NCBI GenBank assembly: GCA_905178155.1
Contig: CAJINV010000006.1
Span: 276,461 to 315,296, forward strand
Source of the DNA: Amoebophrya sp. A120
Lineage: Eukaryota > Protista > Dinoflagellata
Reading direction: 5' to 3'
DNA: 38,836 nucleotides
Shown here: piece after piece, positions 730 to 38,836 of the stretch
Position numbering within the stretch: the stretch's first letter is position 1
Layout: each line of letters starts with the position of its first letter
The notes under the pieces: model-generated
The model's input: only the letters and a program-made list of their open reading frames with translations
What the model was told of the DNA's origin: nothing
Database searches by the model: none
Position numbers and translations under genes: made by a program

Positions 730-3700
730 TGTTCACCACAAAGCCGAACCAGTACTCCCCTACGCTCAAATCGAAGAACCCGTTGCGACAGTGGTCCTGC
801 ACGCGCCTCCCCAGAACGTATTCCGCCCGCTCCGAAAATGCGGCAAGCAAGACGCAAGAGTCGCGGAGCTCGCCATTTCTGGTGTGTTCGAGGGAGGTAG
901 AAGATGAATCAAAGTTGAGGCTCATCTCATCTCCGGCCTATCCTGAGCAAAAGTATCTGATACTCGTGGTAATCGCAGTCATGCAACGTCTTTCCTAAAG
1001 GTAAATCCGCAACATTAGAAATTTCATTTTTTATCATGCTGAGGGATGAATTTGTCATGCGATTTCTACTAGTACGATACTGTTGCAAGACCATGCATAC
1101 GACCACCGCGTGCTGTGCCGGGTTGATGCCGTTCAAAGCGTGCGTGCAAAACGCCAGATGGTGTTTCAGTGTCACCAAAATATCGTACGAAAAAAGTGTT
1201 TCACTGTAAGGATTTTGCAATTTTTGCATCACAAGTTGGTTCTGCATGACAGAGAAAATTCGCCATGCGAGATTTCCAAGGGAAAACACCACTAAAATTC
1301 CATTGTCTTGCATGTGTAGCAAGACAAACGGTTCTGAGATAGATTTTCTGCATTACAAGTTTACAGTGAAACAGTTTTTTCTTGCGATACAAAAACCGGT
1401 GGGTGTAGTCGTGCAGGTCCCACAACAGCTGCTCCAGTTGATTCTATGCATCGCAAAATTCGTAGGTAAATTGCAATCATGCATTACAGATCTGGGTATT
1501 TATCTGATTCACCATTACAAATTCACGAAATTTGTCGTGCTGGGGATGAAATTTGTGATGCGATTTAACTACTAGTACGATTTATAAGTACTTTTGCAAT
1601 GCATAGATTCTTTGCGGCGACAAAAGTGGGTGGCAGCGACACGCCTTGACGGAAAAGGTTCCTGCGTTCATCGTCGGCAGGTAGCTCTATTATCTTCATG
1701 TCCTCACAAACTCGGTCCGGTACTTGCAATATCCTTGGTACCCGGTTGCTCTCCTTGGGTACCGAGGGAACTAGCGGGACCTGGAACAGCCCCACTTCAG
1801 ACTCCGTTTCCTCGTTCGTGCAGTTGTAGTACTGTTTTTTATGTTGATGTTCGTTGTCGTTCTTCTCCTCTGCAGAAGCAGCTCCAGTACTATGGCCTTC
1901 CTGAGAAAGATGATGATCATCATTATGATTTTTATCCCCAGCTGCAGGAGAGGTAACGTCAACGTGAGAAGTTGATGTCTCCTTATGCCGTTGCTGCGTC
2001 GCAAATTCGGTTTCAGAGGCAAGCCGCGCCTCCTGGTAGTCGGAGTCGGACACTTTTAGTTGTTGTGTACTGCCTTCAGCAGGACCTGCCGGCGTTGTAC
2101 CAGCATCTTCGATGTTGTCGCGAAAAATCGCTGCGTGAAGAACGTCGGCCGAAGAAGCAACATGCCCCCACCGCCCCTGTAGCTCTTCGATGCCAACGTT
2201 CATGGTGCCCGCTATCCTGAGTAAACACGTCCCCACACCAGAGTCAGGATGGGGATTTTGCAACACAAGCCTAGGAGTTTTGTGAGTCACGCATGACAAG
2301 TTGCACTTCGCAGCGTAGTGCAGGTTAGCGAGTGCAGCCGCGTCACAGACTTATCTGCTCATCCTGTTCACAGCATCACAAATTCCAGAACACGATTGGA
2401 AATGGCTCTCATGGGGATGCGCATTACAAGTCTTCCTGTCTTTGCAAATCTGCATTACAACTCTGGTGTGGGGACGTTTTTACTCAGGATACCCGGGCCG
2501 AAAAATTCATTAAAGTAGTAATCCAGCGGGATGTATCCTGTGCAAAAGTGTCGCGCTCGTATTAATTGCAGTCACGCATTACAAATTTTTTTTCTTAAGA
2601 TTAATCCGCATTACAATTTTTTTTTCTGCTCATGCTGAGGAAATTTGTAATGCATTAATACTGTTACACGATGAGTACGATACTTGTGCAAGTCATAGTA
2701 TGTAATCCTTCCGCACCCGTGGTTCCTCGTCTATGACGGGCGGGAAAACGCGGCAGATGGACGTTTTGCGTATTGTTTTATGCCTTGCAAAAGCATCGCA
2801 CTAGGATAAATTGCATTACAAATTAGCCCAGCGTTACAAATTAAATTTGTAATCCTGATTCACCTTGAGAAAGAGATTTGTGATGCATAAAACGCAATCT
2901 TCACTACGAGTACGATGCTTTTGCAATGCATATGTTTCCGCCTGGGACCACTGATTCTTCAACAGGGTAGTTGCCTCGTCCTCTTGCAGAAGGAAGTGGT
3001 TGTAATGCCGCTGTTGCTCCTGATAAGGTGGAGCGGGCGTCTTCGTATCTTCAGCAGTAGAACTGGAACTAGAAGCACCTCCTCCGCTAGGGGGTTCTAC
3101 TTTTGTAGTCGTTGCAGCATCTACTTTATGATCATCTTGATGTTGATGCCCTAGCGCGGCTGCAGTAGATCCGTTTATATCTTTCTCGCTGGACGTAGAC
3201 GCCCGGAGAACTTTGTCGAACAAAAACTTTTTCTTCTTCGGGAACCTGTCGGGACGAGGAGGAAGCCTGTCTTCAGCTTCGCTAATCCACTCGCCCCATG
3301 CGTGCGAATTATCTACTTGCGCTGCACTCGACAGCACACGACGAGTAGTTCTTGGTGGTCGCACATGTGCTGGAATCTTCATTGGTGTCGCTCTCGAGCG
3401 TCCGCCCGCGCTACTGTGCGGCGCTCCTCCTTCTCGGTCGTTATTCTTCGAAGACAGAAAGCTGGACACCAAAACGTTTACCTTGTGCGGAAGAACGTGC
3501 TTGTAGCGCAGATTCATGTACAGGGCGGTGGAGAAGGCAACACGGTCGGAAGAGGGCTCCTCTCGAAGATGATCCACAACAATTTCGGGGAAGGAGGAGG
3601 TAGAGGACGCCTTGGTCGTACTACTACCTGGTGCAAAATTGTCGTCCTCGTCTTCATCTGTGCCGCACACTGTAAACTTTGCGATCCTCGGCGATAGGCG

Positions 3701-6700
3701 GAGGAACCGTTTCGCGTCAAGCAGTTCTTCCGGCCTGGGAGGAACAACGCTGGTTGATGTTAGGAACTCCGCTCCGCCCTGCTTCTCCTTCCGCTTTGTT
3801 GTAGTACGTAGATCGGATAGGTGTACAGTAGGCTGGAGGTGGTCCTCTTGCGCATCTGTTACTCGTCCCACAGCAAGGTGTTCTTCTTGACCAGTAGAGT
3901 TTGTTACAGTAGAAGAAAAATGTTCAAAATACCAAACCGCATCCCAAAGCGTCGCAAAGTCTTCTGACAGGTCGAGATAGTATGAATGTGTTTGCGGGGG
4001 TGGGTGCTTGTGGTCCCGCTGCTGCCATTCGTGTCCGATCCGCTTCCGCGTGTTCCAGCCGACCGGATCTAGTACTTCCGCATGATCAAAAGTCGATCCA
4101 CTGGTTTTCTTCTTGTTCCTCGAAAGCAGCAGCTCAGCTAAGTTCCGGCTACCCCAGATGACCGGAATACAGTTGGCTTCCAGCAAACAGGAGAAAGTTT
4201 TGGGATGGATAAAATCGTATCCAGTGCAAAAGTATCGCATCCGTATTGAGAATTAATCGCAGTCACGCATTACAAATCTCACTCTCAAGGTAAATCGGCA
4301 TTACAAATTTTCTTTCTCAAGCTGAGGAGATTTGTCATGCGATTTATACCAGTACGATACTTTTGCAATGCATAAATCGCGCGTGCCAATGTGTTCATCC
4401 GTTAAAACGAAGCTGAAGCGACAAGAAGATGGCTCTTCTTGTGCAGCATCTGCATTGATGTGGTCTGCATGGCGCCCAAGACGTTGAACTACACTGGAGG
4501 AATTTTTTTCATCACTCTCTCCACCACCGTCTGCTTCTTCTACTGTTCTTGGCGGCACAACAACAGAACAGTCACTGTCTGGAGGAGCGAAGTCCTCGTC
4601 GTGGTGCGTATTTATTCCCAGCGACCGTTGGGATGCTGATACGGTGGTGTCGGTATGTTGTTCACCATCTGTAGGTCCTTCTACCAGGTTTTCCTGGAGG
4701 TAGTTTGGGTCCGGGCCACGACTCTGGCCTCTGTCTACTTGTTTCATCTGACCCGCTACAACTTGTAGGATGGCCTGCTTCATCCTCTCCGCCTGAGCCC
4801 CCTCTACCACGTCAAAATCGAGGCTGCAGTAGCGACGGGGAAGCGAAGCGGAAGTAGTTCTTGGCAGCTGCTCTACTCCTGCTTCAGTGAACGAGATAGT
4901 GGACCACGTCGACGCGTGCTGTTTGCTAGGCGTGTAGTCACCATCCTCGCCTACGAGGGTCGTCGTCGTCGTGTCCTGCTCGGAAGAATGTACTAGACCG
5001 GTCGTCGAAGTTGTACTAGAAGAAGAAGAAGAAACAGGCCCCTGGCCTTGCGGAATAGAGCCAGATCCCGACGAAATTGTTAAAACCGAAGATGAGTTGT
5101 CATTATTTCTCAATTCTTGAATCGCCTGCACAGTGTCCGCATTACACATTTTTTTCCCCGTATGAAAGTGCACAAAATAACCCTCCAGCAGCCCCTGGTG
5201 CGACCGTTGTGGTGGTCATGCGAGTTGGGTTCTTGCGCAGCTGTCGCTATTGGATCATTAATATTCTTGCCCTCTAATGCTGTCAGCAGCCCACGTGCGC
5301 TGCATCACGATCTACGTATACTGTGGCGGCCACAACGACCCTACACAGTTGTACTAAAACCAGTTTGGTCTTCCTAGACCGACGTCTAATTATATTCTTT
5401 CTGCACCACAGATGAAGCCAAATTTTTATGTTGAGATCTCCAGGGTAACAAGGCGATAGTGCGCATCATCAATCCCATAGGCAGTCTGACACAACAACCA
5501 GTGACTGTATGCCGACATTGCGTCTTCCTCAGAGGCGTTGCGCCTATGACGTTGCACAACCCGCCTCCCTCTAATATGAGTATCTCGCTAGTCAGTTTGT
5601 GATGCAATATCATAGCCGCCGCGTGCCACAGTAGTGCAGTTAAACTTTATTTCGCATGAAGATCTACTTCAGAAGTTGCAATTATGCAACTGAAAAAGAT
5701 CATGCAACAGGAGGAGTTTTTGTGCACTCTCATAGCGGCCGCGCGCCACGTCGATTATTTTCCGTTCGCGGCGGAACGGGAGCGGCGTCGGTGGCCGTGC
5801 GTACGCGGAGGCGTCACCCATGCCCGTCCCTACCGGCAAGGTGGATGTAGTTGTACTAGAGGTCGTGTTCTTCGCCTTGGTACCTCCTGTGCCTGCCGTG
5901 GTCGGGGTCGTTGTGTTCAGCACATTCGTTTCGTTGTTCGTGGTCGAGCTATGCATTGCAAAAGTAATATCGCTGTACCAGAACTAGTAGAAATCCTATT
6001 ACAAATTGACTTAGCATTACATTTACAGCCTATTATGCGGATCGATAGCAGAAGCACCAACTCTGTAATTATGCACGTACCACCAGTTGTTCCAGTGAGT
6101 TGACAATACTTTTGCACAGGATACGAGATACGAGGCCGTCCCCGAAATCCCGGAGGCTGGAGAAGAAATTTTTGTGATGTCTTTTTGTCTATACAGGGGT
6201 AGGTTTTATGCATGACAAAAGCGGTACATCATGCGGTCGCTCTATGCATCAGAAATTTGGAAAACAATACAGCACTTATCTACCTTCGGTAACGCATTCA
6301 TCCTTATCTCTCCTGCGAGGGTCGTCGTCGTCGTGTCCTGCACGGAAGAAACAATCTTTTCGTGTTCATGATGATCCGTCACGACGATTGTAGCACTCCT
6401 GTCAACTACATGGTCGACAGCAGCGGAAGGGTTCAATTCCCCATTGCTCTCCACGACCACTTCCTCCTCCTCTTCCAAGTCCTCAAACTCGCCAAGCTCC
6501 AAAATTCCCCGGGTCGTGATGGTCGTTTTCTCGGAGTGCGAGAACTCCGTTTCATGATCGTCGTCCCCGCCGCCGGCGGTGGGATCATGATGATGGTCGG
6601 TAAATGCGCCAGAATCATTTTCATCCCCCTCATTCCCAGCGTTAGCGTCCTCTGATAAAATCGCATGCTGAGAAATGTGTTCTTGCTCCAGTTCAAATGC

Positions 6701-7205
6701 TTCTTGTTCTTTCGACGTTCGCAGAAGGTTCTGCAACTCCTGCTGCTCACGGTCATTGACGGCGCAGAAGTATCAAATGTAAAAATGTCTGGGTCTGGAA
6801 ACTTGTAATGCTAAAAATGAATGATCGACGCACTGCAGTACGCAGCTATGCATGACAAATTTTTTGGCTGCCATGTCTTACGTATTCCGCATGGCAAACT
6901 GCGTTTTTGCATGACAGGTAAGAGGGCTTTTTTGTGCCTGTGCAACACAGATTCTCGAATCATGCCAGACAAGCATGACAAACTTGCATTCTTCCAGACC
7001 CAGACATTTTTACAGTTGATAAGAAGGACGGAAATGCGTCGTCGACAACCACGTGGTCACGCGGATGGGCCGATTCTCGTTGCAGCGTGCTCCTGTGATG
7101 AAAATCGCTTTTTAATACTTCCGGTTCCGCAGGGATTATGTGTGACGTGCAGCAGAAGAGGACGAGAGAGCGGAAGAAGGAGAATTTTCTTGCGAAAATG
7201 GCCAT
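730..7205 (-). CDS. Large multi-exon protein with an N-terminal hydrophobic signal/anchor and a degenerate GT10 (alpha-1,3-fucosyltransferase)-like region; interrupted by 10 TIR introns; 3' end unresolved
   Basis: ATG at 7205 (MAIFARKFSFFRSLVLFCC). Removing element plus 5 nt gives in-frame joins: FPSF/CAVND, PRIS/TTNN, GTRD/FIHPK, QAET/IRKT, KDYI/PLDYY, FGPG/TMNV, AKN/QLEQ, HRFL/VTLK, HAVV/GDEMS. The reconstructed RFSFVLTDEHIGTRDFIHPKTFSCLLEANCIPVIWGSRN...YYLDLSEDFATLWDAVWYF resembles the GT10 KFxLxFEN..DYxTEK..AL.AG.VPV.G motif. The junction near 6190-6290 is not resolved. Confidence 0.75.
939..1099. mobile_element. TIR intron element, family D (161 nt)
   Basis: TATCCTGAGCAAAAG...TGCATA; flanks CGGCC/CGACC (4/5); removal with one DR keeps the frame. 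Confidence 0.85.
1181..1389. mobile_element. TIR intron element, family B (209 nt)
   Basis: TATCGTACGAAAAAAGTGTTTCACTGTAA...TTACAGTGAAACAGTTTTTTCTTGCGATA; DR CAAAA. Confidence 0.9.
1445..1605. mobile_element. TIR intron element, family D (161 nt)
   Basis: TATGCATCGCAAAA...TTTTGCAATGCATA; DR GATTC. Confidence 0.9.
2213..2491. mobile_element. TIR intron element, family F (279 nt)
   Basis: Near-perfect 32-nt TIR TATCCTGAGTAAACACGTCCCCACACCAGAGT / ACTCTGGTGTGGGGACGTTTTTACTCAGGATA; flanks CCCGC/CCCGG. Confidence 0.92.
2534..2697. mobile_element. TIR intron element, family D (164 nt)
   Basis: TATCCTGTGCAAAAG...CTTGTGCAAGTCATA; flanks GGATG/GTATG; frame restored. Confidence 0.85.
2779..2932. mobile_element. 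TIR intron element, family D, reverse orientation (154 nt)
   Basis: TATGCCTTGCAAAAGCATCG...CGATGCTTTTGCAATGCATA; DR TGTTT. Confidence 0.9.
4218..4374. mobile_element. TIR intron element, family D (157 nt)
   Basis: TATCCAGTGCAAAAGTATCG...CGATACTTTTGCAATGCATA; DR AATCG. Confidence 0.92.
5161..5734. mobile_element. Long TIR intron element with family E ends (574 nt), DR not recognisable
   Basis: TATGAAAGTGCACAAAA...TTTTGTGCACTCTCATA. Flanks CCCCG/GCGGC are not a DR, but removing element plus 5 nt still rejoins the frame (ARGR/KKMCNAD). Confidence 0.75.
5950..6123. mobile_element. TIR intron element, family D-like, reverse orientation (174 nt)
   Basis: TATGCATTGCAAAAGTA...TACTTTTGCACAGGATA; flanks CGAGC/CGAGA. 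Confidence 0.85.
6771..7021. mobile_element. TIR intron element, family A (251 nt)
   Basis: 30-nt TIR TATCAAATGTAAAAATGTCTGGGTCTGGAA / TTCCAGACCCAGACATTTTTACAGTTGATA; DR AGAAG. Confidence 0.95.
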
Positions 7206-9440: not shown

Positions 9441-9560
9441 TCTGCGACCATGTTCACCGCGGGGAGTTTTCTCTGCACGACGAGAATATTTTATGTGTGG
9501 CGAAGTTTTCTCTGTGCGGGTTGGACTTTTCTCTGTCGGTTGATTTTTTATTTTTTTTTT

Positions 9561-21562: not shown

Positions 21563-24500
21563 TCAAGACGGACCAGCTGGGAGTTCAATGTCTTGCAGTA
21601 GAGTAGCGAACTTGTCTTTGACGGCCTGGCTCCTGGGATGGAAATTTTCGTACATGTGCTTCGTAGTTCTGTTCCAACGAAACGGGTTTTCATTCTTGCA
21701 CGGAACGGAGCTCGACCGCGCCCTGGTCCAAGTCCAGCGAAAATGGCGATACGACCACTCGGCTCCTCTCGTGTCCGAACTCTGCCGCCAAAAAGACGCT
21801 CTGTTCTTGAAGTCCAGCTGGAAAAGCTCGTGCCATCTGGGATGCACAGCCGACGTTTCGGCAATTTCACCCTCGTTTTGGAGTTGTGAGAGCATGACTT
21901 CGGGCCATTGACGTGATTTCTTGGCCAGCGCCAGCGGCGAGTCGGTATTGAGGCAGTAACCTGTGAGCATTGCAAAAAGAAATTATTTGAAAAAACGTTC
22001 TGACGTACGAAGCTTCTGACGTACGAAGCGATCCATTGCTTCAGCTCCTGAGCTTTTACGCAACTCATTTGAAGCTAGCCAAACGCGAAATACAAAAATT
22101 GCAAAAAAAAAAAACAGCTCTGGACATGAGTGGTCCGCACATAGAGCAGCCATGGAAAAGATTTGAACTCGCGGAGCTTTCATTGGTGTAGCCAATAGTA
22201 ATATTAGAGATTTACTAAGTACCATATGGAACGCTGAAGCGGCGGACGACGAACTCCTCTATCCTGGTGTCCGCTTGAAACAGGTGCTCAGTCACCATAC
22301 CAATACGGCAGCGCCGCTCTCTAGCAGTCCGCTTTTCCTCATCGTCAACATGGACTCCGGCGTTCGACGTGCTACTACCCTGTATGCTGGGGTTGCTGTT
22401 CCTGTAAATCAGAGGATCGTCCCACACCACTACCGAGGATTCGGTCCCATTTTCCCTCCGTTTCTCGTGGAAAAAGTTCCATACCTCTCCGAAAAATTTC
22501 TTGTCTTCGCGAACGCATCCCGAACGCAAGCGTTCCGGATCGTAGACAATGTCTTCATACATGGGCCAATTGAAGTACTCCTTGTTCAGATCCCCTTGCG
22601 GCAGATCAACGTGACAGAAGGGCATCAACGCTAGAATCGTCGCAACCTGGATGAATATAACATCGACGAATGCAGCAGGTGATAGAAGATTGAGATTTAC
22701 TTACTACGGGATTCACTATAAAATATTCTTAGAGGAAACGAGTACCAGAAGAAGAAGAAGATGCTCGTCTCAAATCTCATTACATTTACAATATAGAGTA
22801 AATAATCATATCTATCAAATTTTCTTATACCGCCCAGCGGTCAGCAGGGAAAGCGAGGTCCTCGTCTGCGGCTGTGGCAGGTATCCCTAGTGCCGCGTTC
22901 GCCTCCAGCAGCCTGTCTTGACCGAGGTCCACTTCCTGATCGCAAAAATCACCAGGCTTCGAGTCTCGTCCTATACGTTCGTGAAGAACCTCGAGAAAGA
23001 GATCTTCACAACTTTCTCCGTGCTGCTGCCGTCTCATCAGCGACTTGACGCCTGATTCGTCCGCTTCTGTTTCTTCGTGTTGCTGCCACGCGATTTGGGT
23101 CCCGCTTTCGCCCAGGTGTCTATTGCTCTTTTGCATTTCTGTGCCCCCACCAGTCGTAGTCGTGCTACCGGATAGCCCTGCCGTTCTTGTTGATTCCTGC
23201 ACCGGCGCGACGTACGCCGCGGAACTAGACGAGCTAGTACCGCCTGACATCGGGCGGTTGCCACGATCTTGCCCTGACTCTGTGGCAACTGCGCCGCCAC
23301 CAGCTGGGCGCCAGGGTGCTGAGGAGCTCGAGGAGCCGCCTTCTACGACACGAGACGCAGAATCAGCACCACCACCATCACGACCTGCAGGTGAGCTTTC
23401 ATCGGGGAACTGCGCCTGCTCTGCAGTTTCCGGTCTGTCGTCATCTTCGTCGGAAATCGCTTCCAGCTGTTCGTCGAAGTAGTCATAGCCGTTTGCCACA
23501 GAGCCCGCTTCCAGGCTTGATGATAGTACAGATATTTGTCCGTCGTCTGATGCGTTTTCACCTTCATCGAAACTATCATCTGGGTTTTCACCCTCCCGTG
23601 GAGGCTGTTGGTCTTCGTCTTCTTGTGCGCCGGTTCCGACCACTTCCGATCCTTGTGTGCTCGATGATACATGCCCGCTGTGCTCATTAGCGCGGGCGCC
23701 TTCAGTGTGGCTACCAGTTGCCGTGTGAGGAGTCCCAGGGGGACTCGAGGCATCAGGGAGTGAGGAACCAGGAGCACCTTCCCCTGTCGGATGATTGGCG
23801 ATTCCCGTACGGGCTGAAGCTCCTTGCGCAGAGCCGCTCTGGTTGTCCAGAATCGGATTTGAGGTGGCTGTGCTTGAGCTACTTGAACGTTGGCCCAAAA
23901 GATCGATCCTGCCACTACCCTCAGCTGACGACTGGTCAGTTCCAACAGCAACGCCACAACCCGAATCACTACTCGCAGCCGTCGTGGACTGTAGTTCTGC
24001 ACTGTCGGACGTGCCTGTGCGCGGTCGCATTTGCGCCGTGTCTGTTCCGTCTTGCTGCGGCAACACCTCCTGCTGTGCAACACTTGATGTGGCAGCAGAG
24101 TGGAGAAGTTCTTGGTCTTGCTGCAGTTCGAGATCCTGATCATGAAGGCTGGTAGTTCCCGGCGACTGGTTGCCTTCCTCGCCTTCTCTTGTCCTTTGCT
24201 GTGCCCCCGCTGCGGGGTTTTGTTCAGCACTGCTCATCGTTTGCTCGGTGCTGGGACTACAACCACTCGTACTATCCGTCTGATCAGCACTTTCCGGAGG
24301 ATCAGGCGGTGACGCGGACGGAGCAGATGATGGTGGCTCACGGCTACCCGCTGCTGGTACTTCACCTGCTTGAGCTTCTACAGCATCCGGGTCAGCTGCA
24401 GGACTAGTTGCAGTTGCCGGACTTGCAGTCGAAGCCGCGGTGGTCGGTTCAGCAGGTACTGCCGGCTGAGCCGGCACCGCAGCAGCAGGAACCACTACTG

Positions 24501-27500
24501 GCGCAGTGGCGGAAACGGGGCCTGCAACGTGCGCAGCAGGCCCGGGTGGACCGGCCGGTGCTGGTGCCGGTACTGCTGCAACACCAGGGGTCGGACCTGC
24601 AGGTTTTGGCTTTGGTTTCGCCGGCGCTAGAAACTCCGCTCCATAAACAGGTCCCGGGGGGAACAAGGTCGACAACACTGACGACGGTGAGCTCTGAGAA
24701 GGAGGAGAAAGCGGTTGGACGTGCTGCGGAGGTGGAGCTGTTGTGTCGGCGTGCCCACCTCCCTCAGGACCATCGTTGCCGGGGGCTGTTGGTGGACCGC
24801 TAGGGTTTCCTCCACGTGGATCACCATTGCCACCACCACCACTGCCTGGATCACCATCCCCGTTGAAAATTCTTGTCGGGACCAAAATATTCGGCTTATA
24901 CCCGCCGCCGAAGCCGCCAAACGGATTATACGCATCACCGTCCCCAGACCCCAGCTCTGCTTTTTGTTTGTTCGCCTCGCTAACGTTGCCCATATGCACT
25001 GCTAAGCCGGTAGCAACAGCGAGAAGACAAACGGCGATGATGGTGATAATGATGGTTGAGAGCGAAGAGGCCAAAAAAGCGGCGCAGGGGCCCGCGGAGG
25101 ATGTTGAGGATGAGGAGGGGTCCTCTGTCAGGGGGTGAAATTTGTCTTGTGAAAGGTCGTCGTGGTCATCAACATCTTCACGTGCACAAAAACTTGGTGT
25201 CCTCATCGTGTCGCGCTGCTCTTCATCGTCGAAAGTCCGTGTCGCAGATACCGAGCATGCGGCTTTGTTCCTGGAAGCAGGAGCAAAGTCTCTTCCTGTT
25301 ACATCTTCCGCCTTCTGAGGCTGCTGATGTGACAGAGAGGAATTATCGGCTCCTTCCCTTTCAGGAGGGAGTTCCTGAGCATTTATCTTATCCACCTCTT
25401 CCTCAGAGGATGACACCAGCTCTGGCTCGTGTTCTTCTGGCGGTTCGTTACCACAATCTCGCTTTATGCCGTGTTTCAACATTTTCTCCCCTTCGCAAGC
25501 CGACTTCCCGTCGGCTTTCTGCATTTGATTCGCATCGCCGCCGTGATGTTCATCCTGCGCAACGCCGTCGTCCTGTCGTCGTTTCAATAGCTCCACTTGT
25601 AGTTCCGCACCACCGGTTGTAGTGCCCTCGAGAGCAGTGGTCGAGTTGTAGGAGTAGCTCTCTTGTTTCGCCAAAAGCGGTAGAAACGCCGTTTGATCGA
25701 TGTACTCCTCTTCGTAAATGTCCGATAGCCGGCGGCCCTTCCATTTTATTGTGAGGAAAAATCCCCCCTCCCCATATCGAAAGCGGAGTTTGTGTTGCTG
25801 TATTTGAGTACACAAATCACATCTGTCTTGCTAGAGAGGACTGCAGACCCATATCAAGCCTGAGCAGAGATGCTTTGACTTAGGCGCTTAGCATGAGAAG
25901 CGTCCGTGATGTTGGCTCAACAGCATGACAAACCGCCTCCATAATGGGACGGAAGCTGCTGCCCTTGTCTTCTTGCAACACAAACGTGATTTGTGACCTC
26001 AAATCAGCAACACAAATTTGCGAAAGCCTACCTCTTCAATATGGGGAGGGGGGATTTTTCCTTGCGATACATTTCGTCGTCTTTCCTTTCATGTCTTGTT
26101 CGTTGACTAGATTTTTCGGCGTTTTCAGTAGCAGCTTTTGCTGTCTTTTCTTGGTCGTGGTTCCTCCACGACCTACTTCGCCTGGCTGCAAACTCGCATC
26201 ATACCCAAGATCATCTCCTGGTTATGCAAGAAAAAAACTGTGTAAGTGTAACTTTGTATTGCAGACGTTACAATACAGTTACACTTGTCATGTTGGATGT
26301 GCGTCAGAGGCTATTTTCATACGTGTTTTCGCGTACTAGCTACGCATGACAGGTTTTCTCTGTCATGCAGAGCAAATTTGTGATGCTGTTCCTGCAAAAA
26401 AGTTACACTTACACATTTTTTTCCTTGGATACTGGTGCTGGCGCCTCCAAATACTTCAGCACCGTCTGCGCGTCCCACCGCCTTTCCCACCGCCACCGCA
26501 GCGTGACTTGCAGTAATGATACCAGATGGCCGAAGAGCGCGGCGTCCTGCTCTTCCCACCTGCGGGACCTCGAATACAGAATCCGGACCCGGGAATCCGC
26601 CACGGCGAACTGCGCCCGCATCCCGCAGCCCTCTAAATGCTCGTACGGCGCACGCCCGTACAGCAATTGGTAGAGGATGATCCCCAGGGCCCAAACATCA
26701 GCCGCCGGGCGCATCTTCAAACTCGCCGACCCCTCGTCCGGCTGGTAGAACGCCTCCGGCGGCATGTAGCGCGGCGTGCCGCACTGGCGGTCGCGGGAAA
26801 CGTGGGTTATACCCTCTTCCTTGTTGATCCCCCGCGCGAGGCCGAAGTCATATCAAATGTAAAAATGTCTGGGCCTGGAAGATTGCAAGATGTGTCATGC
26901 TAGTCTGGCATGACTCTGCACTCTGTATTGCGTGGCCACAAACAGCCTCTCTCGCCTGTCATGCAAAAACGCACTTTCTTATGCGGAATGCGCAGCACAG
27001 AGGCACGAAAAAACTTGTCATGCTCGGCGGTGCGTTGCAGTTCACTTATTGTTCACTGATTTGCATCACAAGTTTCCCGACCCAGACATTTTTGCATTTG
27101 ATAAGTCAGAGACCTTCACGATGTTGTCCACGATGAGGAAATTCGCGGGCTTCAGGTCAAAGTGGATCAGCCCGAGACTGTATCAAATGTAAAAATGTCT
27201 CGGTCTGGAAGGTTGCCAGGTTTGTCATGCATATTTTACATGACTCAGGATGTCTGTAATGCATGCTCTAGCATCACATATCTCTAGAGGCCTTCCTGAT
27301 GCCTATCCCGCACGACAAATGCCCTCCCCGCGTAGCACAAACTGGGCGCCTCTTGCTGGTCATGCAATAGAGATTTTTTTAGAGTCCAAAGTTAGCATCA
27401 CAAGTTGCATTCTTCCAGACCCAGACATTTTTACATTTGATAGACTGTGGATGGCCGCGACGCCCGCGACCATGTCGCGCCAGAGATTGCGGATGTCGTA

Positions 27501-30008
27501 GATAGAAAAGATTTCGTAGTTCTTCCGAAGAAAGGAGTGCAGATTGGGTATCGGAGGGGAAAGGAGGTTCTTTGGTTGTTGAGCCAGTTCTTGTTCCAAT
27601 TGAGACAACATTTTCTCATGCTCATCATGTGGTTGTACATGCAAAAATTATGGCAATCGCGATGACAAATTACATGCGCTTGCGGCTGGTCCTGCACGAC
27701 TCCTCCGAGTCAATAAATATGCACAAGGTGCTTCTTGCCGCGCGCATCTTCATGCGTGCCATCTTCTTAATCGCGGTTTAGAATCAGAGAAACCATCTCT
27801 TTCAAACAAACCAACACAATCATTATTCCACCCCATACCACAGTCCGCGAATTCCAGCAAAATGTGGATCACCAAGTCTTTTGGAAAAAATTTCGCTTCG
27901 CCGATCATCTTCACTACCCGCAGCTCGTCCACCGCGTTGTGTCTACCATTCTGGGTACTAGTTCCGGCCTTCGCTGCCCGATTTTTGTCCCGCAAAGCCC
28001 GCAGCCAGTTTACCTCCATGGCGAACGAGCGCATTTGCCTCGCGTCCCGAGCGTAGACGACTTTGAGTGCGTAGCGGCTAACGGATAACGGAGAACCTTG
28101 CTCCTTGTTTCGACTTGCACTGCTGCTTGTTCCATTGGGCTGACCACTTCGCGACGCGCCGTCATGGTTGGAGCTATAGTTGCCCCCACGACTGCCCGAT
28201 CCCGAGGTCGTAGTAGTCGATCCTTCATCTCCCACACAAGTTCGCAGGTCAACGCACTCGAACACCTCCGCCGACCCGCCCTTCCCGATCCGCTTCACAA
28301 CTTCGAGCAATAAAGTCGGTTTGTTGAAGTCCACGTGATGGCTGTCAACCACCTGTTCGCCCATGCAGATGACCATGCCGGGGCCAACGCGGGCAGTGGC
28401 GGTCACAGCGATGTTTTTCCGCTGGATAAACGCAGCCGGGGAGAGTAACGAATCATTTTCCTGGTACGAAGTCCGGCAGTCCTCGTCGTTGAAATACTCT
28501 GGTAGGTCGCTCGGGGAATTGAGAAAAGGGGCGTTGTGGCGCCCGTAGACGGGGATGCTGCAGCCCGCGGAGGGGGGATGTAGATGGTCTTTTTGAGGGG
28601 AAAAACCATTCGCCACTTCTGCGTTCGCAGGACACATCCCTTCCACATCGGGGAGACCACTAGCATGATCCCGGGGAACAAGATCGGTGTCCTTCTGGAC
28701 GTCTTTGCCATCAGGCACAGGAGAAGGATCGACCTTTTCCGCGCAGCGTGGTAATATTATCGGCGTAGAATCCTCCGGGACGACTGGCGCGTTGTTGCGG
28801 CTGTCGGCCTTGATGTCGTGGCTGCACCCTCCAGAGCTGGTAGTGTCACGAGGATTTCTGATATGAAAGCCGCGACGTCCATTTCCATATTTCGCCGCTT
28901 CAGCTACAGGCTGAGCCTCCTCTTGATTCTGGTGAAGACGCGCTGACTCGTCCACATTTCGTTGTAGCTCGGTCCTCTTACCGTTGGATGTACCAACCAC
29001 AGGAGCCACCTTTGGCAAATCCGCCTGGTAGACGAAGTCTTGCAGTCCTTGAGGCTGCTGGTCGTTCTGGCCAGCATTTTGGTGTCGCTCCTGCGGTGCG
29101 GCGAGCTGTGTGTCACCGTTTTCGCAGTCGGCATTGCTTTCGAAACTGGTTTCTCTGTTTTCCAGCCGCCCTGTGTCTGTGCGGGAGTTCTTGTGCTTGT
29201 TGTCGCGATAGGCATCAGTGAGGCCCGCATGGTCCTCAACATCATGTCTGACCCTGGGAGCAGCCACGGAATAAGAGCTCTCGGAGGTGGGCTCTCTGTT
29301 CGGATTGTAGGACGAATATTGGTCAAGGTCATCTCGTGTCGCCGCAGGCCGGACTTCCACTTGGCCGCGGCCAGGGCGCCACGCAGGAGGAGTTCCACCA
29401 CCTACATCGCTTCTTAATATCACATCATCCTCAATCGTACTCGTCGCTGCCGGTCTCCTGGCGTCGTTTTGGTCTTGGTAATACGAGCTTCCATAATTAC
29501 CGGTGGGCAAAGTGGTGTTCACTATGCCGTCGTACGACGTCGCGTTATTTCGTTCATGGGCGCGAGGGTCACGTGGGCCGCCAACCACATCCCGTGCAGC
29601 TTGTTGCCACTCATACGCTGCCTCTTCTCGAACACCTTCTCCCGGTGCATGTTGTCCCACGTCGGCTCCAGCATTTGCGGCCTGTGCATGACAAACTTTC
29701 GGCTCGAAATCGAGTGTGGTCGCAGTATGCAACGCCGACGTTGCTTGCGTGGGAACTGGGGCGACGGGTAAAGGGTAGCTGGGTACGTCATGCTCTTCTT
29801 GGACAAAGCGCGCACGGTTATTTTCGAAGCGTCTATTCGTGTTACCCGGCACTGCTAAGTCGCGGCCGGCGTTAGAAGTAGCTCCACATGGAGGCTGTAT
29901 GCAACCGTGCGGATCTGGATGGTGAGGGTTCAAATTTTTACATTGGTCAGACGGAATCGCGGGTCGTGCGGGATTGTCGTTGAAATGGTGGCTGCGCCGG
30001 TCGCTCAT
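21563..30008 (-). CDS. Mps1/TTK-like protein kinase, continuous in frame with a transmembrane helix, a Pro/Ala/Ser-rich stalk and a Cys/Trp-rich C-terminal domain (about 2200 aa if a single gene)
   Basis: Kinase motifs after removing the elements: IGKGGSAEV, YALK, LEFADC/NLHSFLRK, IHFDLKPANFL, VKVSDFGLA, QCGTPRYMPPEA, DVWALGIILYQLLYGRAPY. Approximate exons: 30008-27840, 27545-27443, 27175-27104, 26845-26432, 26217-26070, 25741-22831, 22646-22223, 21960-21563. The kinase call is strong; the fusion is less certain. Confidence 0.8.
25747..26069. mobile_element. TIR intron element, family C (323 nt)
   Basis: TATTGTGAGGAAAAATCCCCCCTCCCCATAT...ATATGGGGAGGGGGGATTTTTCCTTGCGATA; DR CATTT; join TTK/WKGRR. 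Confidence 0.93.
26223..26431. mobile_element. TIR intron element, family B, reverse orientation (209 nt)
   Basis: TATGCAAGAAAAAAACTGTGTAAGTGTAACTT...AAGTTACACTTACACATTTTTTTCCTTGGATA; DR CTGGT. Confidence 0.93.
26851..27103. mobile_element. TIR intron element, family A (253 nt), inserted in the kinase DFG motif
   Basis: Family A TIRs; DR AGTCA; join TCT GAC T/TC GGC = SDFG. Confidence 0.95.
27181..27442. mobile_element. TIR intron element, family A (262 nt)
   Basis: Family A TIRs; DR GACTG; join AIHS/LGLIHFDLKPAN. Confidence 0.95.
27549..27837. mobile_element. Decayed TIR-type intron in the kinase hinge region
   Basis: Imperfect inverted ends TATCGGAGGGGAA / TTCCACCCCATA and no DR. Removing the core plus 5 nt (294 nt) gives EFADC/NLHSFLRK. 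Confidence 0.55.
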
Positions 30009-32732: not shown

Positions 32733-32788
32733 TACGTATCCTATACGGATTCAAAATCATATACAATCCATTTCCGACACGCATATAC

Positions 32789-32815
32789 GTGAGTCTGGTG
32801 ATTCACCAGACTCAC
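32789..32815. repeat. Perfect palindrome with 13-bp arms
   Basis: GTGAGTCTGGTGA-T-TCACCAGACTCAC. Confidence 0.85.
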
Positions 32816-34936
32816 TGACATTGACCTTGATGTAGTTCGTTGATCTCATCGCAAGTGCAGGTTATCGGAGCAGCAGGTAGTATTTTGAGAATAGGACTGT
32901 GCAGCACATCATGTCCATCTTCCTCCTGCATGCTGCAACGTCGTCGATTTCAAGGGAGGTTCTTTGACCTATTCATACATGGAGTGCAGGAACGATCATG
33001 ATCATGTTGATCCTGCATCCGTAGCCGGACTAAACCGTGTTGCTTCTTCGAGCGGACGAAGCTGTGGTGGGAAGGAGAAGAAGAACTGCAGCAGAGGCGC
33101 GTTTATGTCACAGTTCACAATGGATCATTATCACCTGCTCTTCGGACAAGCACAACTACTCCAAGCGCATTTTGATTGAACCGTCGAGAAGTAGTTGTTT
33201 TGGCATCCTCCTCAACAAGAAGCAGCCGATTCGCAGGTCTCGTTGTCTTCGCCCGTTGCGCCCATGAATTTTTCGCCAAACTCGACCTCCTGTATCAGCA
33301 TCGCCGACAACAGCGCCATTTTCTCATTTTTGTGAGAAGCTAGAAAAACTAACTCGTGGTCCGACAAGGTAGAGGACTTGCACTTCTACTCTACTCTAGG
33401 CCTAACTGCTAAGCGTCAACCACAAATTCAGCAACGCTGCGCTTGTTCCAACACAACATGTTCCAACAGAGAAAGAACTTGTTCTACATGCAATCATCAA
33501 ACACAAACAAGGACAAGGAGAAGAACGGCACAACCCGCGGGCGACGCAAGGAACAGAGCGAGATTTTAGCTTTCGCATCGCAATCATTTTTGTGCACTGG
33601 TCGTTAGAAGCAGAGCAGCCGGCTGCAATTGTAGCCACGCTAGACGACCTAGCCTGCATAGCCGCTGTCACTGTAGGCTAGGTATAGCCTAGCTGCAACG
33701 GCGGCTGGCTGCTGTCACTCAGCACTGCAGACGAGACAGCTGCGGATTCTCACAGTAACTGTCTGCTCGTCTGCATGGTTTTATAATTTTTTTTGTCATC
33801 ATAAGCTTTTGGTACAAGGGATAGAAATTCATTTTCAACTGCTGCTTCCGTGTTTCTTTTTCATCCTCGATCGTTCGAGTTTCTTGCCACAACGCAATTG
33901 ATCGACATAATTGTTCCTTCTGTCGTGATACGGTGGCTACTGACTTGGTGACTTTCAAGTCAAATAAAACTCTCATCGACCACCTACCTGTAGTGCTGGA
34001 TCATGATCGGGGATCGGAATTTGTGATGCTGATTTCGAATATCATAAATAGTTTGTAATGCTATATTTCGAATAGTAATTGACTAGTTTTGAGATGGACA
34101 AAAACCACAAATCTTCGTAGTTCGCGTTTCGTGTTTGTCAGCTTGTAATGCTAGTTCTGCCATGCTACGCACCTCCTCGCGACCTGGGCCACAACCATTG
34201 TTGCGTACCACAGTCGTGGCATGACATGCTTTTTCGTTTTTTAATAGAGTTAATACGTTCCTACTTTTCAATATCCTGTCCACATAACGGCACAGAAATA
34301 TTTTGGTTACACAGGTGAAACAGTTTTCAAAAGATCTTCCCACGATGAAAGGTTTTGTGAGACAGGATTTGATCGCTGTGGAATAAAAGGTTTCAATTTA
34401 CTGTGGATCGTCTATGAATTGTTGGTAAAAATAATCGGAATTTCGTCCTTATTGACTTCTGACAAACATCGACACTTCTTCTATACTAGCTGGTCGTGAA
34501 TGCACCAGATTTCCTACAGATACCATAGACTCAGAGTCGTCGTGAGACTTCCTCGACTTCCGGACCCGTGCTCTCCCGAAGTAGACTTACTCGAAAAGGA
34601 GAGAGGTTTCATGACCAAAGTGCATCTATTGAATGAGTTTGGACTATTAAATACGTGCTGGTAGGCCGCTTTATGATGACAGTCATCTTACGTTAAAAAT
34701 AGAAAAACAAAACAAGTACAGAACTGGCTGAGAAGAAGTTTGTTCACGGAAATAAAGTAAAGTCACTCATGGTAGGAGGTATTCGGCTAGAATTTCAAAT
34801 ATTTGTATTTCAGCAAAATACATAGTAGAAGGGAGAAACCTATTGTACAATTTAGGAGGAAGAACAGAAGAACAAAAGAAGACCACTACTTCATTTTTCC
34901 GCAACTACTACAGTGGTTAAGGAAAGAAACCCTACT

Positions 34937-37748
34937 TTACTTCACCTCCTTCAAAAAGCGGAAGTAGAGTTTCTTAGCCAGCAGCCGGTGCTTCTTTGAC
35001 TTCGCGTACCAGGCTATCCAAGAAAAAAACTGTGTAAGTGTAACTTTCTTTGGCAGACAGCATCACAAATTTGCTCTACATGACAGAGAAAACCTCTCAT
35101 GCGCGGCTTGTACGGGAAAACACACATGAAAAAAGAAGTTCGTGGCTGTGTGGCATGACAGGCGTAACTCTGTTGCATATTCTGCATTACAGAGTTACAC
35201 TTACACAGTAGTTTTTTTCTTGCATACAGGCGGCGTCGTGTCCGTGGTGGCACTTCTGCTCCGGGTCCGCTCCGTAGTGCAGGATTAAGAAGTATCAAGT
35301 GCAAAAATGTCTCGGTCTGGAAGAGTGTAGACTTGTCATGCAGATTTTCCATGACCCATGAGTTCAGGAATGCGGGACTTAGCATGACAGACTCTGCGAG
35401 GTCTCTGCCATGCCTATTCTGCATGAGAAAGTCCGTTCCAACTTGGTCAAAAGTGGACAGCTTTTGGCATTCATGCAACACAGATTTTTGCATGCTTCAG
35501 ATTTGTCATGACAAGTTACAATCTTCCAGACCCAGATATTTTTGCAATTCATAAGAAATGGCACAGGTCTTCCTTCCCCGTTTTCGCAGCGTAGTGCAAA
35601 ACGGTCTGTCCGTTGTTGGGCCACTTGTTGTCCAGTGCTTTCCAGCCCTGGTTGTTGAGCATCTTGAAGCACTTCTTGTACTCCGCCGGCACCAATTCCT
35701 CGGCTTATCCTGTGCAAAAGTCTATCGCATTCGGAGTAATTGCATTTATGCATTACAAATCTCTTTCTCAAGGTAAATCCGCATTACAAATTGAATTTCT
35801 AATGCTGGGCTAATTTGTGATGCAATCGATACTAGTACGATGCTTTTGCATTACATATGGCTTCGTACGGAGACATGATGTCACTCGCCTTGATCACTTT
35901 CTCCTGTATGAGAGTGCACGATTCCCCCCTCATCTTTCGTATTTTTGCATGAACAGCAATACAAACACGACCACAGACACACGTGGAGCTCCCTGTGCAT
36001 GACAAATTCATGCGCCTAGTGTAGATAGTACTGCTTGGGCAGCTTCCGGAATCTGTGATGCATAAACAGTGCCACAGGGAAGCACTTGGATTTGGGATTT
36101 TGCATGAGAAATGAGAACGAGGGGGAGTTGTGCAGTTTCATATCCTGGCCGGCCACGTTGGAAGGCATACCGGATTTCTCGTCCAGCAGGTCATTGCTGT
36201 TCGCGCCGTCATCCAGCTTGCTCTGGGCCTGCGCCTTCTTAGCCGCTTCCAGTTTCTTGCGCAACTATTGTGAGGAAAATTCCCCCCTCCCCATATTGGA
36301 AAGGACATTTGTGATGTCGGATTTGCGTACACAAATCGACTTGTTATGCTAGAAGGCCAAGCGACGCAATTGTGGCCGGAATTGCAAGCAGTTTGTCATG
36401 CTGTTTGCCACTTCCAGTTGCCTCCTGTCACGCTGAAGATGCAAGGCCTTCCCACGCCGGCCAGCACTACAGTCCGCATCTTTTGCCCTCTAGCGTGACA
36501 ACGTAAATTGTGGTAGCAAATCATGCTACACAAATCTCCGTTTTAGTATGGGGAGGAGGGATTTTTCCTTTTGATAGCAACTCCGGATTCTTCTGCAGCT
36601 GGTACTTCCACTCCTTCTATGAGAGTGCACAACTCCCCCTCCCCCTCATTTGTCATGGAAAATACCAACTCCAAGCGCTGCTGCGTGGTACTGTTTGCAT
36701 GACAGATTCCGGAAGCCCAAACAGTACTGCACTGAGCGCATGAACTTGTCATGAACAGGCTCCACAGGTGGGGGTGTCTGTATTGCTGTTCATGCGATAC
36801 AAATGAGGGGGAGGGGGGGGTTGTGCACTGTCATACCTTCGCGAAAACCTGTTCGTTCGCCGGATTCGAAAAATCGATGTCCTCCGCCGGAAAACTGACC
36901 ATCAGGGCCGAGAACTCTTCGAAGAGCGAGTTTTTCTTCTTCGGGTTCGCCAAATCAATGGCCTTCTTGCCGAAATCGTCGATCACGTGCACCTGCTGCT
37001 TGATAATCGTTTCGTCCAGGTTGAGCACTAGGTAGTCGAAGAGAGGCTTGTTATTCTTTTTCGCCGCGTAGTGGAAGAAGGTGCCATATGGATTGCAAAT
37101 ATGTCTGGGTCTGGAAGAGTGGAACTCGTAATGCTGCCTGCGGATTCTAAAAATGTCTGTGTTGCATGAGCAGCCAGAGGAGTCAGCTCTTGGCACGCAG
37201 AGAGGGCATTTCTCATGCGTAATTAGCATCAAGAAGCTCTCAAAAAATCTGTGATGCTAGCATCAGCATCACAGACCTCATGGGTCATGCAAAATGTGCA
37301 TGACAAGCCCCAACTCTTGCAGACCCAGACGTTTTTGCAGTTGATATGCCACCGCCAGTCTTGTGGGCCAACTGCTGCTGGCAATTTTCGTTGTCGAACC
37401 CGAGCTCTTTGCACATCCGGAACATCTTCCCGTAAAAGTCGCACAGACCAAAGTCGTGTTCCTCGTCGTAGATCTTCGTGCCGTCCGATCGGCCCGATTT
37501 GTTGGACGCCATGGACTATGCAATGCAAAAGCATCGTACTCGTCATATAAATGCATTTAGAAATTAGCCCAGTACTACAAATTGAATTTGTAATGCTGAT
37601 TGACCTTGAGAAAGAGATTTGTAATGCCTAAATGCAAGTACTACGAGTACGATACTTTTGCACAGGATATGGACTCCTTGCTCATCATAGACTGCCGCAG
37701 CTGGTCCTTGTTCGGCACCAATTGGATCATGATCTGCCCGTTGCTGAA
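34937..37748 (-). CDS. Ankyrin-repeat protein, 9 exons split by 8 TIR introns; 5' end uncertain
   Basis: Removing each element plus one DR gives 969 nt of continuous frame ending at TAA 34937. It contains GGTFFHYAAKKNNKPLFDYLV...DDFGKKAIDLA and GQTVLHYAAKTGKEDLCHFLILHYGADPEQKCHHGHDAAWYA. Confidence 0.88.
35015..35226. mobile_element. TIR intron element, family B (212 nt)
   Basis: TATCCAAGAAAAAAACTGTGTAAGTGTAACT...AGTTACACTTACACAGTAGTTTTTTTCTTGCATA; DR CAGGC. Confidence 0.93.
35293..35553. mobile_element. TIR intron element, family A (261 nt)
   Basis: Family A TIRs; flanks AGAAG/AGAAA; join LCHF/LILHYGAD. Confidence 0.92.
35706..35857. mobile_element. TIR intron element, family D (152 nt)
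   Basis: TATCCTGTGCAAAAG...CTTTTGCATTACATA; flanks CGGCT/TGGCT. Confidence 0.9.
35907..36142. mobile_element. TIR intron element, family E (236 nt)
   Basis: TATGAGAGTGCACGATTCCCCCTC...GAGGGGGAGTTGTGCAGTTTCATA; DR TCCTG. Confidence 0.92.
36266..36576. mobile_element. TIR intron element, family C (311 nt)
   Basis: TATTGTGAGGAAAATTCCCCCCTCCCCATA...TATGGGGAGGAGGGATTTTTCCTTTTGATA; DR GCAAC. Confidence 0.92.
36618..36835. mobile_element. TIR intron element, family E (218 nt)
   Basis: TATGAGAGTGCACAACTCCCCCTCCCCCTCATTTGT...ACAAATGAGGGGGAGGGGGGGGTTGTGCACTGTCATA; DR CCTTC. Confidence 0.93.
37087..37346. mobile_element. TIR intron element, family A (260 nt)
   Basis: Family A TIR variants; DR TGCCA; join TGGG/TFFHYAAK. 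Confidence 0.92.
37517..37669. mobile_element. TIR intron element, family D, reverse orientation (153 nt)
   Basis: TATGCAATGCAAAAGCATCGTACTCGT...ACGAGTACGATACTTTTGCACAGGATA; DR TGGAC. Confidence 0.93.
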
Positions 37749-38012
37749 TATGCATTGCAAACATGTCTGGGTCCTCTGGAAGGATGCAACTTGTCATGCT
37801 AAATCCGAATCGTGCAAGAATCTGTGTTGCATGAGTGCCAAAAGCTGCGCACTTTTGACCAAAGTGAGAGGGAGTTTATCATGCAGGACAGACATGATAG
37901 AGATCTCACAAGATCTGTCATGCTAGGTCCTGCATTCCAACCCTCGTGCGTCATGGAAAACCTGCATGACAAACTTGCACGCTTCCAGACCCAGACATTT
38001 TTGCATTTGATA
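37749..38012. mobile_element. Family A element with unrelated flanks, possibly a hybrid (264 nt)
   Basis: Both TIRs are present, but the flanks CTGAA/TTCTT are not a DR. Confidence 0.85.
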
Positions 38013-38836
38013 TTCTTCCGGCCTGGGAGGAACGAGGCTGGTTATTTTGTAGGGAGGTTCTTGGTATCAAATGTAAAAATGTCTGGGTCTGGAAGATTGC
38101 AACTTGTCATGCTGAATCTGCAGCATGGAACAATCTGCGTTGCATGATTGCCAAAAGTCGTCCAGTTTTGACCAAGTCGGGAGAGAGTTTCTCATGCAGG
38201 ATAGGCATTAGAAAGGTCTCGCAGAATCTGTCATGCTAGCTCCGGCATTCCAGACCTCATGGGTCATGGAAAAGCAGCATGACAAATCGCGCAACATTCT
38301 TCCAGACCCAGACATTTTTACACTTGATACTTGGACGAGAAACTCCGTTCCGCCCTGCTTCTCCGTCCGCTTTGTTGTAGTACGTAGATCGGATAGTTGT
38401 ACACTAGGCTGGAGGTGGTCCTCTTGCGCATCTTTTACTTCTCCCAGAGCACGATGTTCTTCGTGCATGAGCAGCAAAGAGAGTCCAAGTTTTGCTACAC
38501 GGAAAGAGCATTTGTCATGCGGTATAGGCATCAGGAAGCCCTCGCAAAATCTGTGATGCTAGGGCATGCATCACAGACATCAGGAGTCATGCAAAATGTG
38601 CATGACAAACGTGGCAATCTTCCAGACCCAGACATTTTTACATTTGATATTCCATTTCGTGACCGTCGAACCAACGTAGGGACGGAGAAAGAAGTAGTGC
38701 GAAACGTCGGTGGTTGAGGCCGCGGCGGGAGGAATTTCTGTTGCTGAACTCTTATCAGCGGGAGTAGCGACGTCTGCATCGCTGTCGTGCCGCCGGGAAG
38801 TAGTAGGAGATTCATCTGCAACAGATGCAGAAGCCC
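38013..38836 (-). CDS. Exon fragments paralogous to part of the 7205-730 gene; possibly rearranged or a pseudogene; runs off the right edge
   Basis: EEHRALGEVKDAQEDHLQPSVQLSDLRTTTKRTEKQGGTEFLVQ/EPPYKITSLVPPRPEE matches EEHLAVGRVTDAQEDHLQPTVHLSDLRTTTKRKEKQGGAEFLTSTSVVPPRPEE at about 3725-3890, and the match is visible at DNA level. Confidence 0.65.
38065..38329. mobile_element. TIR intron element, family A (265 nt)
   Basis: Family A TIRs; DR CTTGG. Confidence 0.95.
38464..38649. mobile_element. Family A element missing its left TIR
   Basis: The right TIR TTCCAGACCCAGACATTTTTACATTTGATA and the family A body are present. The left ~80 nt are absent and exon sequence abuts the body directly. Confidence 0.8.

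Follow-up and report, generated by a model that had tools for sequence, protein, structure and literature searches.

The genome of the dinoflagellate Amoebophrya sp. A120 carries introner elements that form non-canonical introns: about 65% of its introns lack GT-AG ends, no U1 small nuclear RNA (snRNA) was detected, and a hairpin has been considered (Fig. 4 legend) (Farhat et al. 2021, PMC7789003). A120 introners have terminal inverted repeats (TIRs) that begin with TAT followed by seven variable bases and an A-run, 5-bp direct repeats (DRs), lengths of ~150–320 nt, many families and co-oriented host genes (PMC7789003), and diverse members are listed in PMC12130899. Here we analyze a window of 38,836 nt from A120 (contig CAJINV010000006.1, forward-strand positions 276,461 to 315,296) that contains 24 complete inverted-repeat elements of 152–323 nt and one truncated copy. 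These elements belong to the already described A120 introner system and are not a new kind; they share its inverted repeat of TAT, seven variable nucleotides and at least three A, its DRs of 3–5 nt, its families and its host genome, and we find no difference in kind from the published description. What the locus adds is a set of constraints on mechanism, namely balanced orientation without splice-site co-option, a cut placed in the flank, apparent removal of an element that has no DR, and a shared periodic internal motif. With moderate confidence, we take the elements to be miniature inverted-repeat transposable elements (MITEs) with 5-nt target-site duplications (TSDs) that insert in either orientation and would be cut from pre-mRNA by machinery reading their symmetric ends at fixed offsets. 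The passages of PMC7789003 drawn on here use orientation for gene blocks; how elements lie with respect to their host gene, a cut deduced from mismatched DRs, removal without DRs and a periodic motif are not reported in them. The method of PMC9860276 allows opposite-orientation matches, and our search of the open-access literature found no paper on orientation or DR independence of A120 elements.

Related introns occur in other lineages. The nonconventional introns of euglenids and diplonemids likewise have non-GT-AG ends, paired termini, frequent DRs and a proposed MITE origin (PMC12501133, PMC11282704, PMC12621601), and in Euglena spacers of set length separate a paired motif from the cut (5'-N3CDG ... 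CHG N5-6|R), which amounts to an end-measuring rule (PMC12501133). The lineages are unrelated, however, and by inspection the Euglena motif is CDG/CHG whereas the motif here is TAT-N7-AAA; Euglena also calls for a purine at the acceptor exon, its two intron ends are not equivalent, and excised circles are reported. Introners of Polarella glacialis (bioRxiv 10.1101/2020.10.14.339549) and Aureococcus (Huff 2016, as summarized in PMC10228655) resemble the A120 elements as TIR/TSD elements that make introns either way round and are removed seamlessly, but in them GT/GC/GA and AG are carried or co-opted, with the element or the TSD as the source, and orientation is biased; such co-option is not seen here. 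The MITE-derived introns of Fritillaria borealis similarly combine TIRs and TSDs with non-canonical ends, yet prefer AG-AC/AG-AT ends and are ascribed to removal by the spliceosome, whereas the ends in A120 are random (review PMC11282704). Amoebophrya Kv has canonical introns and U1 (PMC12005148; see also PMC12787238), and AT5 likewise belongs to the canonical-intron Amoebophrya.

We located elements de novo by searching for TAT...ATA pairs, using end similarity and flanking repeats, combined with self-BLAST. All listed ends are imperfect TIRs of the pattern TAT-N7-A-run, the A-run being shorter in E-type elements, and the multicopy families A (including subfamily A2), B, C, D, E and G were distinguished (Table 1). 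The elements are thus short, TIR-bearing, multicopy and flanked by duplications of fixed length, as MITEs are. Applied to metagenome loci described below, the element finder, which sought elements of up to 450 nt, made 80 hits in the real loci and 1 in 30 shuffled ones, so that the elements are not due to chance. All coordinates of the original prediction were borne out, with one correction concerning DRs: 16 of the 24 elements have perfect 5-nt DRs, seven have one mismatch, and element A37749 has none.

Families A, B, D and E each occur in both orientations within minus-strand genes of the window. Orientation was called by local alignment of interiors; trimming 30 nt off both ends kept the TIRs from deciding the outcome, and shuffled sequences gave maximum scores of ~23–46. 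The D elements at 939, 1445, 2534, 4218 and 35706 are alike and those at 2779, 5950 and 37517 are reversed, as had been predicted (35706 against 2779, same-orientation score 49 and opposite 136; against 37517, 45 and 130); D5950 is the most diverged, scoring 39–44 opposite and 24–32 same against 1445 and 2534, with a reversed alignment running end to end. The predicted reversal of B26223 likewise holds (36 and 149 against 35015; 40 and 84 against 1181), as does the opposition of A27181 and A35293 to A37087 and A38065 (for example 52 and 256, 54 and 193). A37749 is also opposite to A27181 and A35293, and two further opposite pairs emerged, A2 elements 6771 and 26851 (52 and 177) and E elements 35907 and 36618 (54 and 179). 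C25747 and C36266 are nearly self-symmetric (global scores 150 and 174), which makes their orientation call unreliable. The host genes do lie on the minus strand as stated: the open reading frames (ORFs) run that way, and a codon model, trained partly on these same exons, placed 22 of 24 junctions on the minus strand, with two uncalled and none on the plus strand.

Reading frames indicate that each element is lost together with flanking sequence. When every element was deleted with k additional nucleotides, long ORFs opened at 662–5215, 22828–27647 and 34940–38041 for k = 2, 5 and 8 only, and retaining elements one at a time shortened the ORF for 19 of 19 elements in these three ORFs. The kinase gene, whose best match is the Amoebophrya A25 homologue P0001 (56%), separates the three values: k = 5 gave 217 bits with one gap, as opposed to 207 bits for k = 2 and 204 bits for k = 8 with three gaps each, and only k = 5 left no gap at both junctions preceding the HFD loop and the DFG motif, which come from A elements of opposite orientation. 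The spliced ankyrin-repeat ORF from the ATG at 37730 is identical at 316/316 residues to an annotated A120 protein (CAD7953064.1), so that the elements are already annotated A120 introns and the genome is that of A120; this identity is no evidence separate from the published work. The largest exon of ORF 1 has no database homologue and no Pfam family. For the elements at 939–7021 and 25747–27442 the evidence of removal is reading frame and homology, with frame as the sole line for B26223. Around 27650–27840 the kinase gene requires further introns, and by inspection one candidate has GT...AG ends when read on the minus strand, which suggests that canonical and non-canonical introns occur within one transcript.

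Sequencing contigs give a more direct view of the ankyrin gene. Four runs were compared with positions 33000–38836: X1 and X3, which come from one sample, the DNA-like X5, and X8, a run of raw reads with two reads. The X1 contig (1,476 nt) and X3 contig (913 nt) skip ten elements (Table 1), with A, D and E each skipped both ways round, and every checkable gap in their records (59, 43, 36, 0 and 122 nt) has the size that removal of an element plus 5 nt predicts. Depth in X1/X3 falls to 0–2.7 within E35907 and C36266 compared with 15–31 in adjoining bins, and X5 covers elements deeply. That X1 and X3 are RNA is a guess, backed by their zero depth at 33000–33779, where the DNA-like X5 reaches 40–67; on that footing, the elements combine non-GT-AG ends with removal from transcripts.

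Mismatched repeats help to place the cut. At A35293 the contig keeps the first base of the upstream DR copy, and at D35706 contig and annotation both keep the fifth base of the downstream copy; if a single offset applies to all elements, the cut is bracketed inside the 5-nt flank and leaves between 1 and 4 nt of the upstream copy in place. Across 37510–38330, record arithmetic shows three elements losing 15 extra nucleotides, and two of these have perfect DRs, leaving 5 for A37749, whose flanks match at one of five positions. Since this element still loses exactly 5 extra nucleotides, the ends and not the repeats are likely to set the cut. The original prediction had the fold-back bring the two DRs together, and on this point it is unsupported as worded: matching repeats appear to be dispensable for removal.

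A larger sample came from a metagenome collection scanned with the A-type TIR, which gave at least 138 loci; the 80 loci listed are contigs of one assembly and contain 250 distinct elements. From these we kept 186 that had a called strand, at most one DR mismatch and 40-nt flanks, or 185 after de-duplication, of which 165 fall in a family. Their best matches to elements of the window reach 93–99% identity, with no shared exon hits. Among strong-TIR copies in the loci listed, 182 of 230 have a perfect 5-nt DR, against 0–1 at lengths 3, 4 and 6–9. Host strand was assigned by a codon model trained on exons of the window, which agreed with the ORF-length call in 58 of 58 cases and was internally consistent in 45 of 47 loci. 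Orientation relative to the host strand among the 185 copies is balanced at 37:38 for A and 10:10 for D, with 3:2 for E, and +5 is the best frame at 64 of 76 clear junctions, a result that concerns frame only. Mismatches at DR positions 1–5 (11, 5, 4, 5 and 6) are uninformative on the cut.

The flanks of the 185 metagenome copies have exon-like composition without GT or AG enrichment; in perfect-DR copies, G occupies DR position 5 in 46 of 154 and position 1 in 51 of 154, against a background of 0.29. A GT/GC-AG placement of the kind used by U2 introns is available in 10 of 154 perfect-repeat metagenome copies, and GT-AG in 2 of the 24 elements of the window. Flank composition and the rarity of such placements rule out co-option of splice sites from the TSD. 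A window of 10 nt with at least seven pyrimidines occurs in the last 25 nt of 21/24 sense and 20/24 antisense strands, since the symmetry of the inverted repeat places a U-run near either 3' end, and YTRAY in the last 55 nt shows no sense excess (23 sense and 30 antisense among the 185 copies).

All families share an internal motif, GCA[TAC][GTC]ACA, found by k-mer counting on elements of the window (14.8 per kb inside elements, 0.66 outside) and confirmed on the 185 metagenome copies, where it occurs 362 times in sense and 363 times in antisense. A conserved branch motif on both strands had been named in the original prediction as evidence that would tell against it; this motif is indeed present on both strands in 155 of 185 copies and absent from one, and its role as a branch site is putative. 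The last sense copy lies 48–51 nt from the 3' end in family A in either orientation, and 76 or 116 nt from it in D depending on orientation. Same-strand spacing peaks at 31–33 nt (160 of 386) and 93–97 nt (35); the shorter spacing approximates three DNA helical turns, and from this we infer a putative DNA-level binding site.

Together, these data outline how such an intron might arise and be removed. The element inserts either way round, with A and D, the two families sampled best, split about 50:50, and without selection for GT or AG in the flanks; its DRs, which judging from one natural case need not match, would be a transposase footprint. Provided that the contigs represent RNA, the element would be excised with exactly 5 nt in either orientation, by a cut inside the 5-nt flank; the two offsets would merely sum to 5, making removal seamless. 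The signal would be the TIR end itself, comprising the terminal TAT/ATA and the A-run/U-run at positions ~9–16, and the stem formed by the two ends probably assists recognition. The reader may be a dedicated end-measuring activity like that proposed for euglenid nonconventional introns. In our judgment, a non-standard pathway of this end-measuring kind is likelier than a spliceosome that depends on a conventional branch point. The stronger proposal, that A120 possesses a second, non-spliceosomal and strand-symmetric nuclear splicing pathway defined by TAT...ATA ends and by a fixed sum of 5 nt measured into flanks of any sequence, we offer tentatively and at less than even probability.

Several observations weigh against reading by symmetric ends, beginning with the material itself: X1 and X3 are one sample, assembled contigs and not reads, of guessed RNA nature, and their junctions are deduced from record coordinates and not from displayed joints. 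Near-identical paralogues exist, and a minor variant of X3 at 35602 is the V-to-I change of paralogue P0021. DR independence comes from one element, A37749, and a register test comparing a ruler from the terminal TAT with one from the inner stem yielded two clear cases only. The smaller families are skewed in orientation among the 185 copies (A2 16:7, B 10:3, G 5:14, C 1:9), with a summed chi-square of 18.2 (7 degrees of freedom, p 0.011) driven by these small families, and some orientation effect may exist. The remaining objections concern the stem. Because the antisense strand is predicted to form it just as often, end to end in 67 of 70 sampled copies compared with 66 of 70 in sense, it carries no information on selection in RNA. 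Mismatches show no excess of G.U, with 81 G.U and 120 A.C at sense-strand positions 4–16; counted per element the figures are 31 and 56 (p 0.01), and 9 and 18 for elements of the window, a bias opposite to wobble rescue in counts that family structure makes non-independent. Arms of A elements show no covariation at positions 4–7 (position 7: 33 paired, 32.6 when permuted). D35706 is removed although its predicted stem probability is ~0.05.

The original prediction took the fold-back to be the likely signal, and this part of it has a mixed outcome. Most copies are predicted to form a stem; the pairing probability of TIR positions 1–3 reaches at least 0.5 in 51 of the 70 copies sampled, positions 11–13 are paired in 176–179 of 185, and positions 4, 5 and 7 are mismatched in 40–50% of copies. 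The compensatory changes it proposed as a check were found nowhere in a form favoring a stem next to the junction: A arms covary at positions 10 and 14, which shared ancestry explains equally well, and the wobble and covariation tests lent no support. Conservation of the 5' and 3' TIRs by gene polarity did not differ significantly (sign p 0.21, 0.07 and 0.41). The ends likely define the intron, and the predicted fold-back is plausible as a signal.

One alternative is a relaxed, U1-less spliceosome that takes a branch A and a U-tract from the symmetric element either way round, with the stem merely joining the ends, and we regard it as rather unlikely. Removal in both orientations means that excision cannot rest on a signal supplied by one orientation only, and to that extent the original prediction stands; its exclusion of a branch point or pyrimidine tract does not, because a symmetric element offers candidates for both on either strand. 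Nor are two orientations alone an argument against the spliceosome, given that Polarella and Aureococcus introners work both ways with ordinary splice sites. In its favor are the U-run close to the 3' end in both orientations, the last sense GCA[TAC][GTC]ACA, which in 104 of the 171 copies with such a motif is 40–59 nt from the 3' end, and the retention by A120 of nearly all spliceosomal proteins, U2, U4, U5 and U6, and 35% GT-AG introns (PMC7789003). Any cut within the DR would, however, leave random terminal bases, and the motif lies 76 or 116 nt from the 3' end in D and 86–105 nt in most B copies of one orientation. It is missing in sense from 14 of 185 copies, B35015 has no sense copy of the strict motif and is removed all the same, YTRAY shows the counts given above, and the 31–33 and 93–97 nt spacing would fit DNA binding better.

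The same periodicity lends itself to an improbable variant in which the ends are read as sequence and not as a stem, by a protein, for example one derived from a transposase, that would attach to the TIR and to the periodic motif, on DNA or nascent RNA, and guide the cutting. Absence of wobble rescue and of covariation near the junction agrees with this, as do the removal of D35706 without a predicted stem and a family-independent motif, spaced at 31–33 nt, in 184 of 185 copies. Recent transposition alone would produce the same features, however, most copies have a predicted stem, and no transposase is reported from A120 by Farhat et al. (PMC7789003), no search for such a protein having been made here. 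Skipping might also not be RNA splicing at all and instead reflect reverse-transcriptase template switching across the hairpin between DRs, or precise DNA excision, which we consider very improbable. A hairpin flanked by short direct repeats is the classic setting for template switching, the raw-read run X8 gave two reads, and one X5 contig begins exactly at 36836, an element boundary, a start to be expected of an empty allele or of a paralogue lacking the element. Such artifacts fit poorly with the truncation of all three ORFs on retention, the conserved kinase core included, with the near-zero depth of X1/X3 inside elements, with removal of the DR-less A37749, or with deep coverage of elements in the DNA-like X5.

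If the cut lies at a fixed offset from symmetric ends, as we favor, A120 would follow a splicing rule free of splice-site sequence and strand, convergent with that of euglenids, and this would explain the tolerance of the genome for mass insertion into coding exons. Were the pathway strand-symmetric, tens of thousands of insertions, and even gene fusions such as that at 37749, would be invisible in mRNA. Orientation balance, mismatched or absent DRs and the internal motif are natural experiments that can be read genome-wide in existing RNA-seq.

The DR-less element coincides with a rearranged gene. Paralogue P0021 of the ankyrin gene runs on N-terminally through NPFSNGQIM, and the sequence upstream of A37749, at 38013–38465, is a copy of the ORF 1 fragment 3725–3889 (91% over 128 nt) flanked by A37749 and the truncated A copy at 38464–38649; these two observations suggest that a rearrangement took place at 37749, either at the element or inside it. 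A37749 appears to be the break between a 5'-truncated ankyrin-gene copy and the captured fragment. The contig joins the two, a possible case of element-mediated exon shuffling.

Table 1. Elements and host genes of the window (positions within the 38,836 nt; orientation for elements, strand for genes)
Feature	Position	Orientation or strand	Direct repeat	Remarks
D element	939..1099	f	CGGCC/CGACC	
B element	1181..1389	f	CAAAA	
D element	1445..1605	f	GATTC	
G element	2213..2491		CCCGC/CCCGG	
D element	2534..2697	f	GGATG/GTATG	
D element	2779..2932	reversed	TGTTT	
D element	4218..4374	f	AATCG	
E-like element	5545..5734		GCGCC/GCGGC	diverged
D element	5950..6123	reversed	CGAGC/CGAGA	diverged
A element (A2)	6771..7021	f	AGAAG	
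C element	25747..26069		CATTT	near self-symmetric
B element	26223..26431	reversed	CTGGT	
A element (A2)	26851..27103	reversed	AGTCA	splits kinase directly before DFG
A element	27181..27442	f	GACTG	splits kinase directly before HFD catalytic loop
B element	35015..35226	f	CAGGC	skipped in contig
A element	35293..35553	f	AGAAG/AGAAA	skipped in contig
D element	35706..35857	f	CGGCT/TGGCT	skipped in contig; no predicted terminal stem
E element	35907..36142	f	TCCTG	skipped in contig
C element	36266..36576		GCAAC	skipped in contig
E element	36618..36835	reversed	CCTTC	skipped in contig
A element	37087..37346	reversed	TGCCA	skipped in contig
D element	37517..37669	reversed	TGGAC	skipped in contig
A element	37749..38012	reversed	none (CTGAA/TTCTT)	skipped in contig
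A element	38065..38329	reversed	CTTGG	skipped in contig
A element, truncated	38464..38649			one TIR lost
Host ORF 1	662..5215	-		1078 codons open after deleting 7 elements + 5 nt each; 5' part unclear
Host protein kinase gene, 3' part	22828..27647	-		1251 codons open after deleting 4 elements + 5 nt; upstream exon 27753-30146
Host ankyrin-repeat gene	34940..37730	-		316 aa after deleting 8 elements + 5 nt; CAD7953064.1
Fragment homologous to 3725-3889	38013..38465	-		now 5' leader of ankyrin-gene copy

Other traces of elements were noted alongside the complete copies. Contigs start at 38650, next to the truncated A copy with one TIR, with extra letters. Orphan TIR-like ends at 5161 and 6207, and motif-rich stretches without paired TIRs at 6150–6300 and 33990–34230, are probably decayed elements; the stretch at 33990–34230 lies within X1/X3 contig coverage and is apparently kept in the 3' untranslated region. 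A candidate at 21019–21466 and three further weak pairs (16987, 18780) were discarded as chance. In the metagenome assembly, a G element at L039:1829-2108, outside any called ORF, has an 8-nt and not a 5-nt direct repeat, and D elements at L001:1374-1492 and L066:1887-2001 contain a second TAT...ATA inverted pair ~15 nt inside the outer one. Members without matching DRs, mostly with no host-strand call, occur at L079:1501-1752, L101:301-570, L129:301-556, L130:60-331 and L002:2123-2341.

Two tandem arrays also lie in the window. Five copies of a 308-nt unit with 90% matches occupy 31189–32733 and could be an unannotated small-RNA array or a satellite; the array contains a TAATTCTGGG stretch that we take to resemble an Sm site. 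Rfam returned nothing at gathering score in the whole window and nothing credible in this array. A 97-nt tandem array of ~5.4 copies spans 3–534, just beyond the 3' end of ORF 1.

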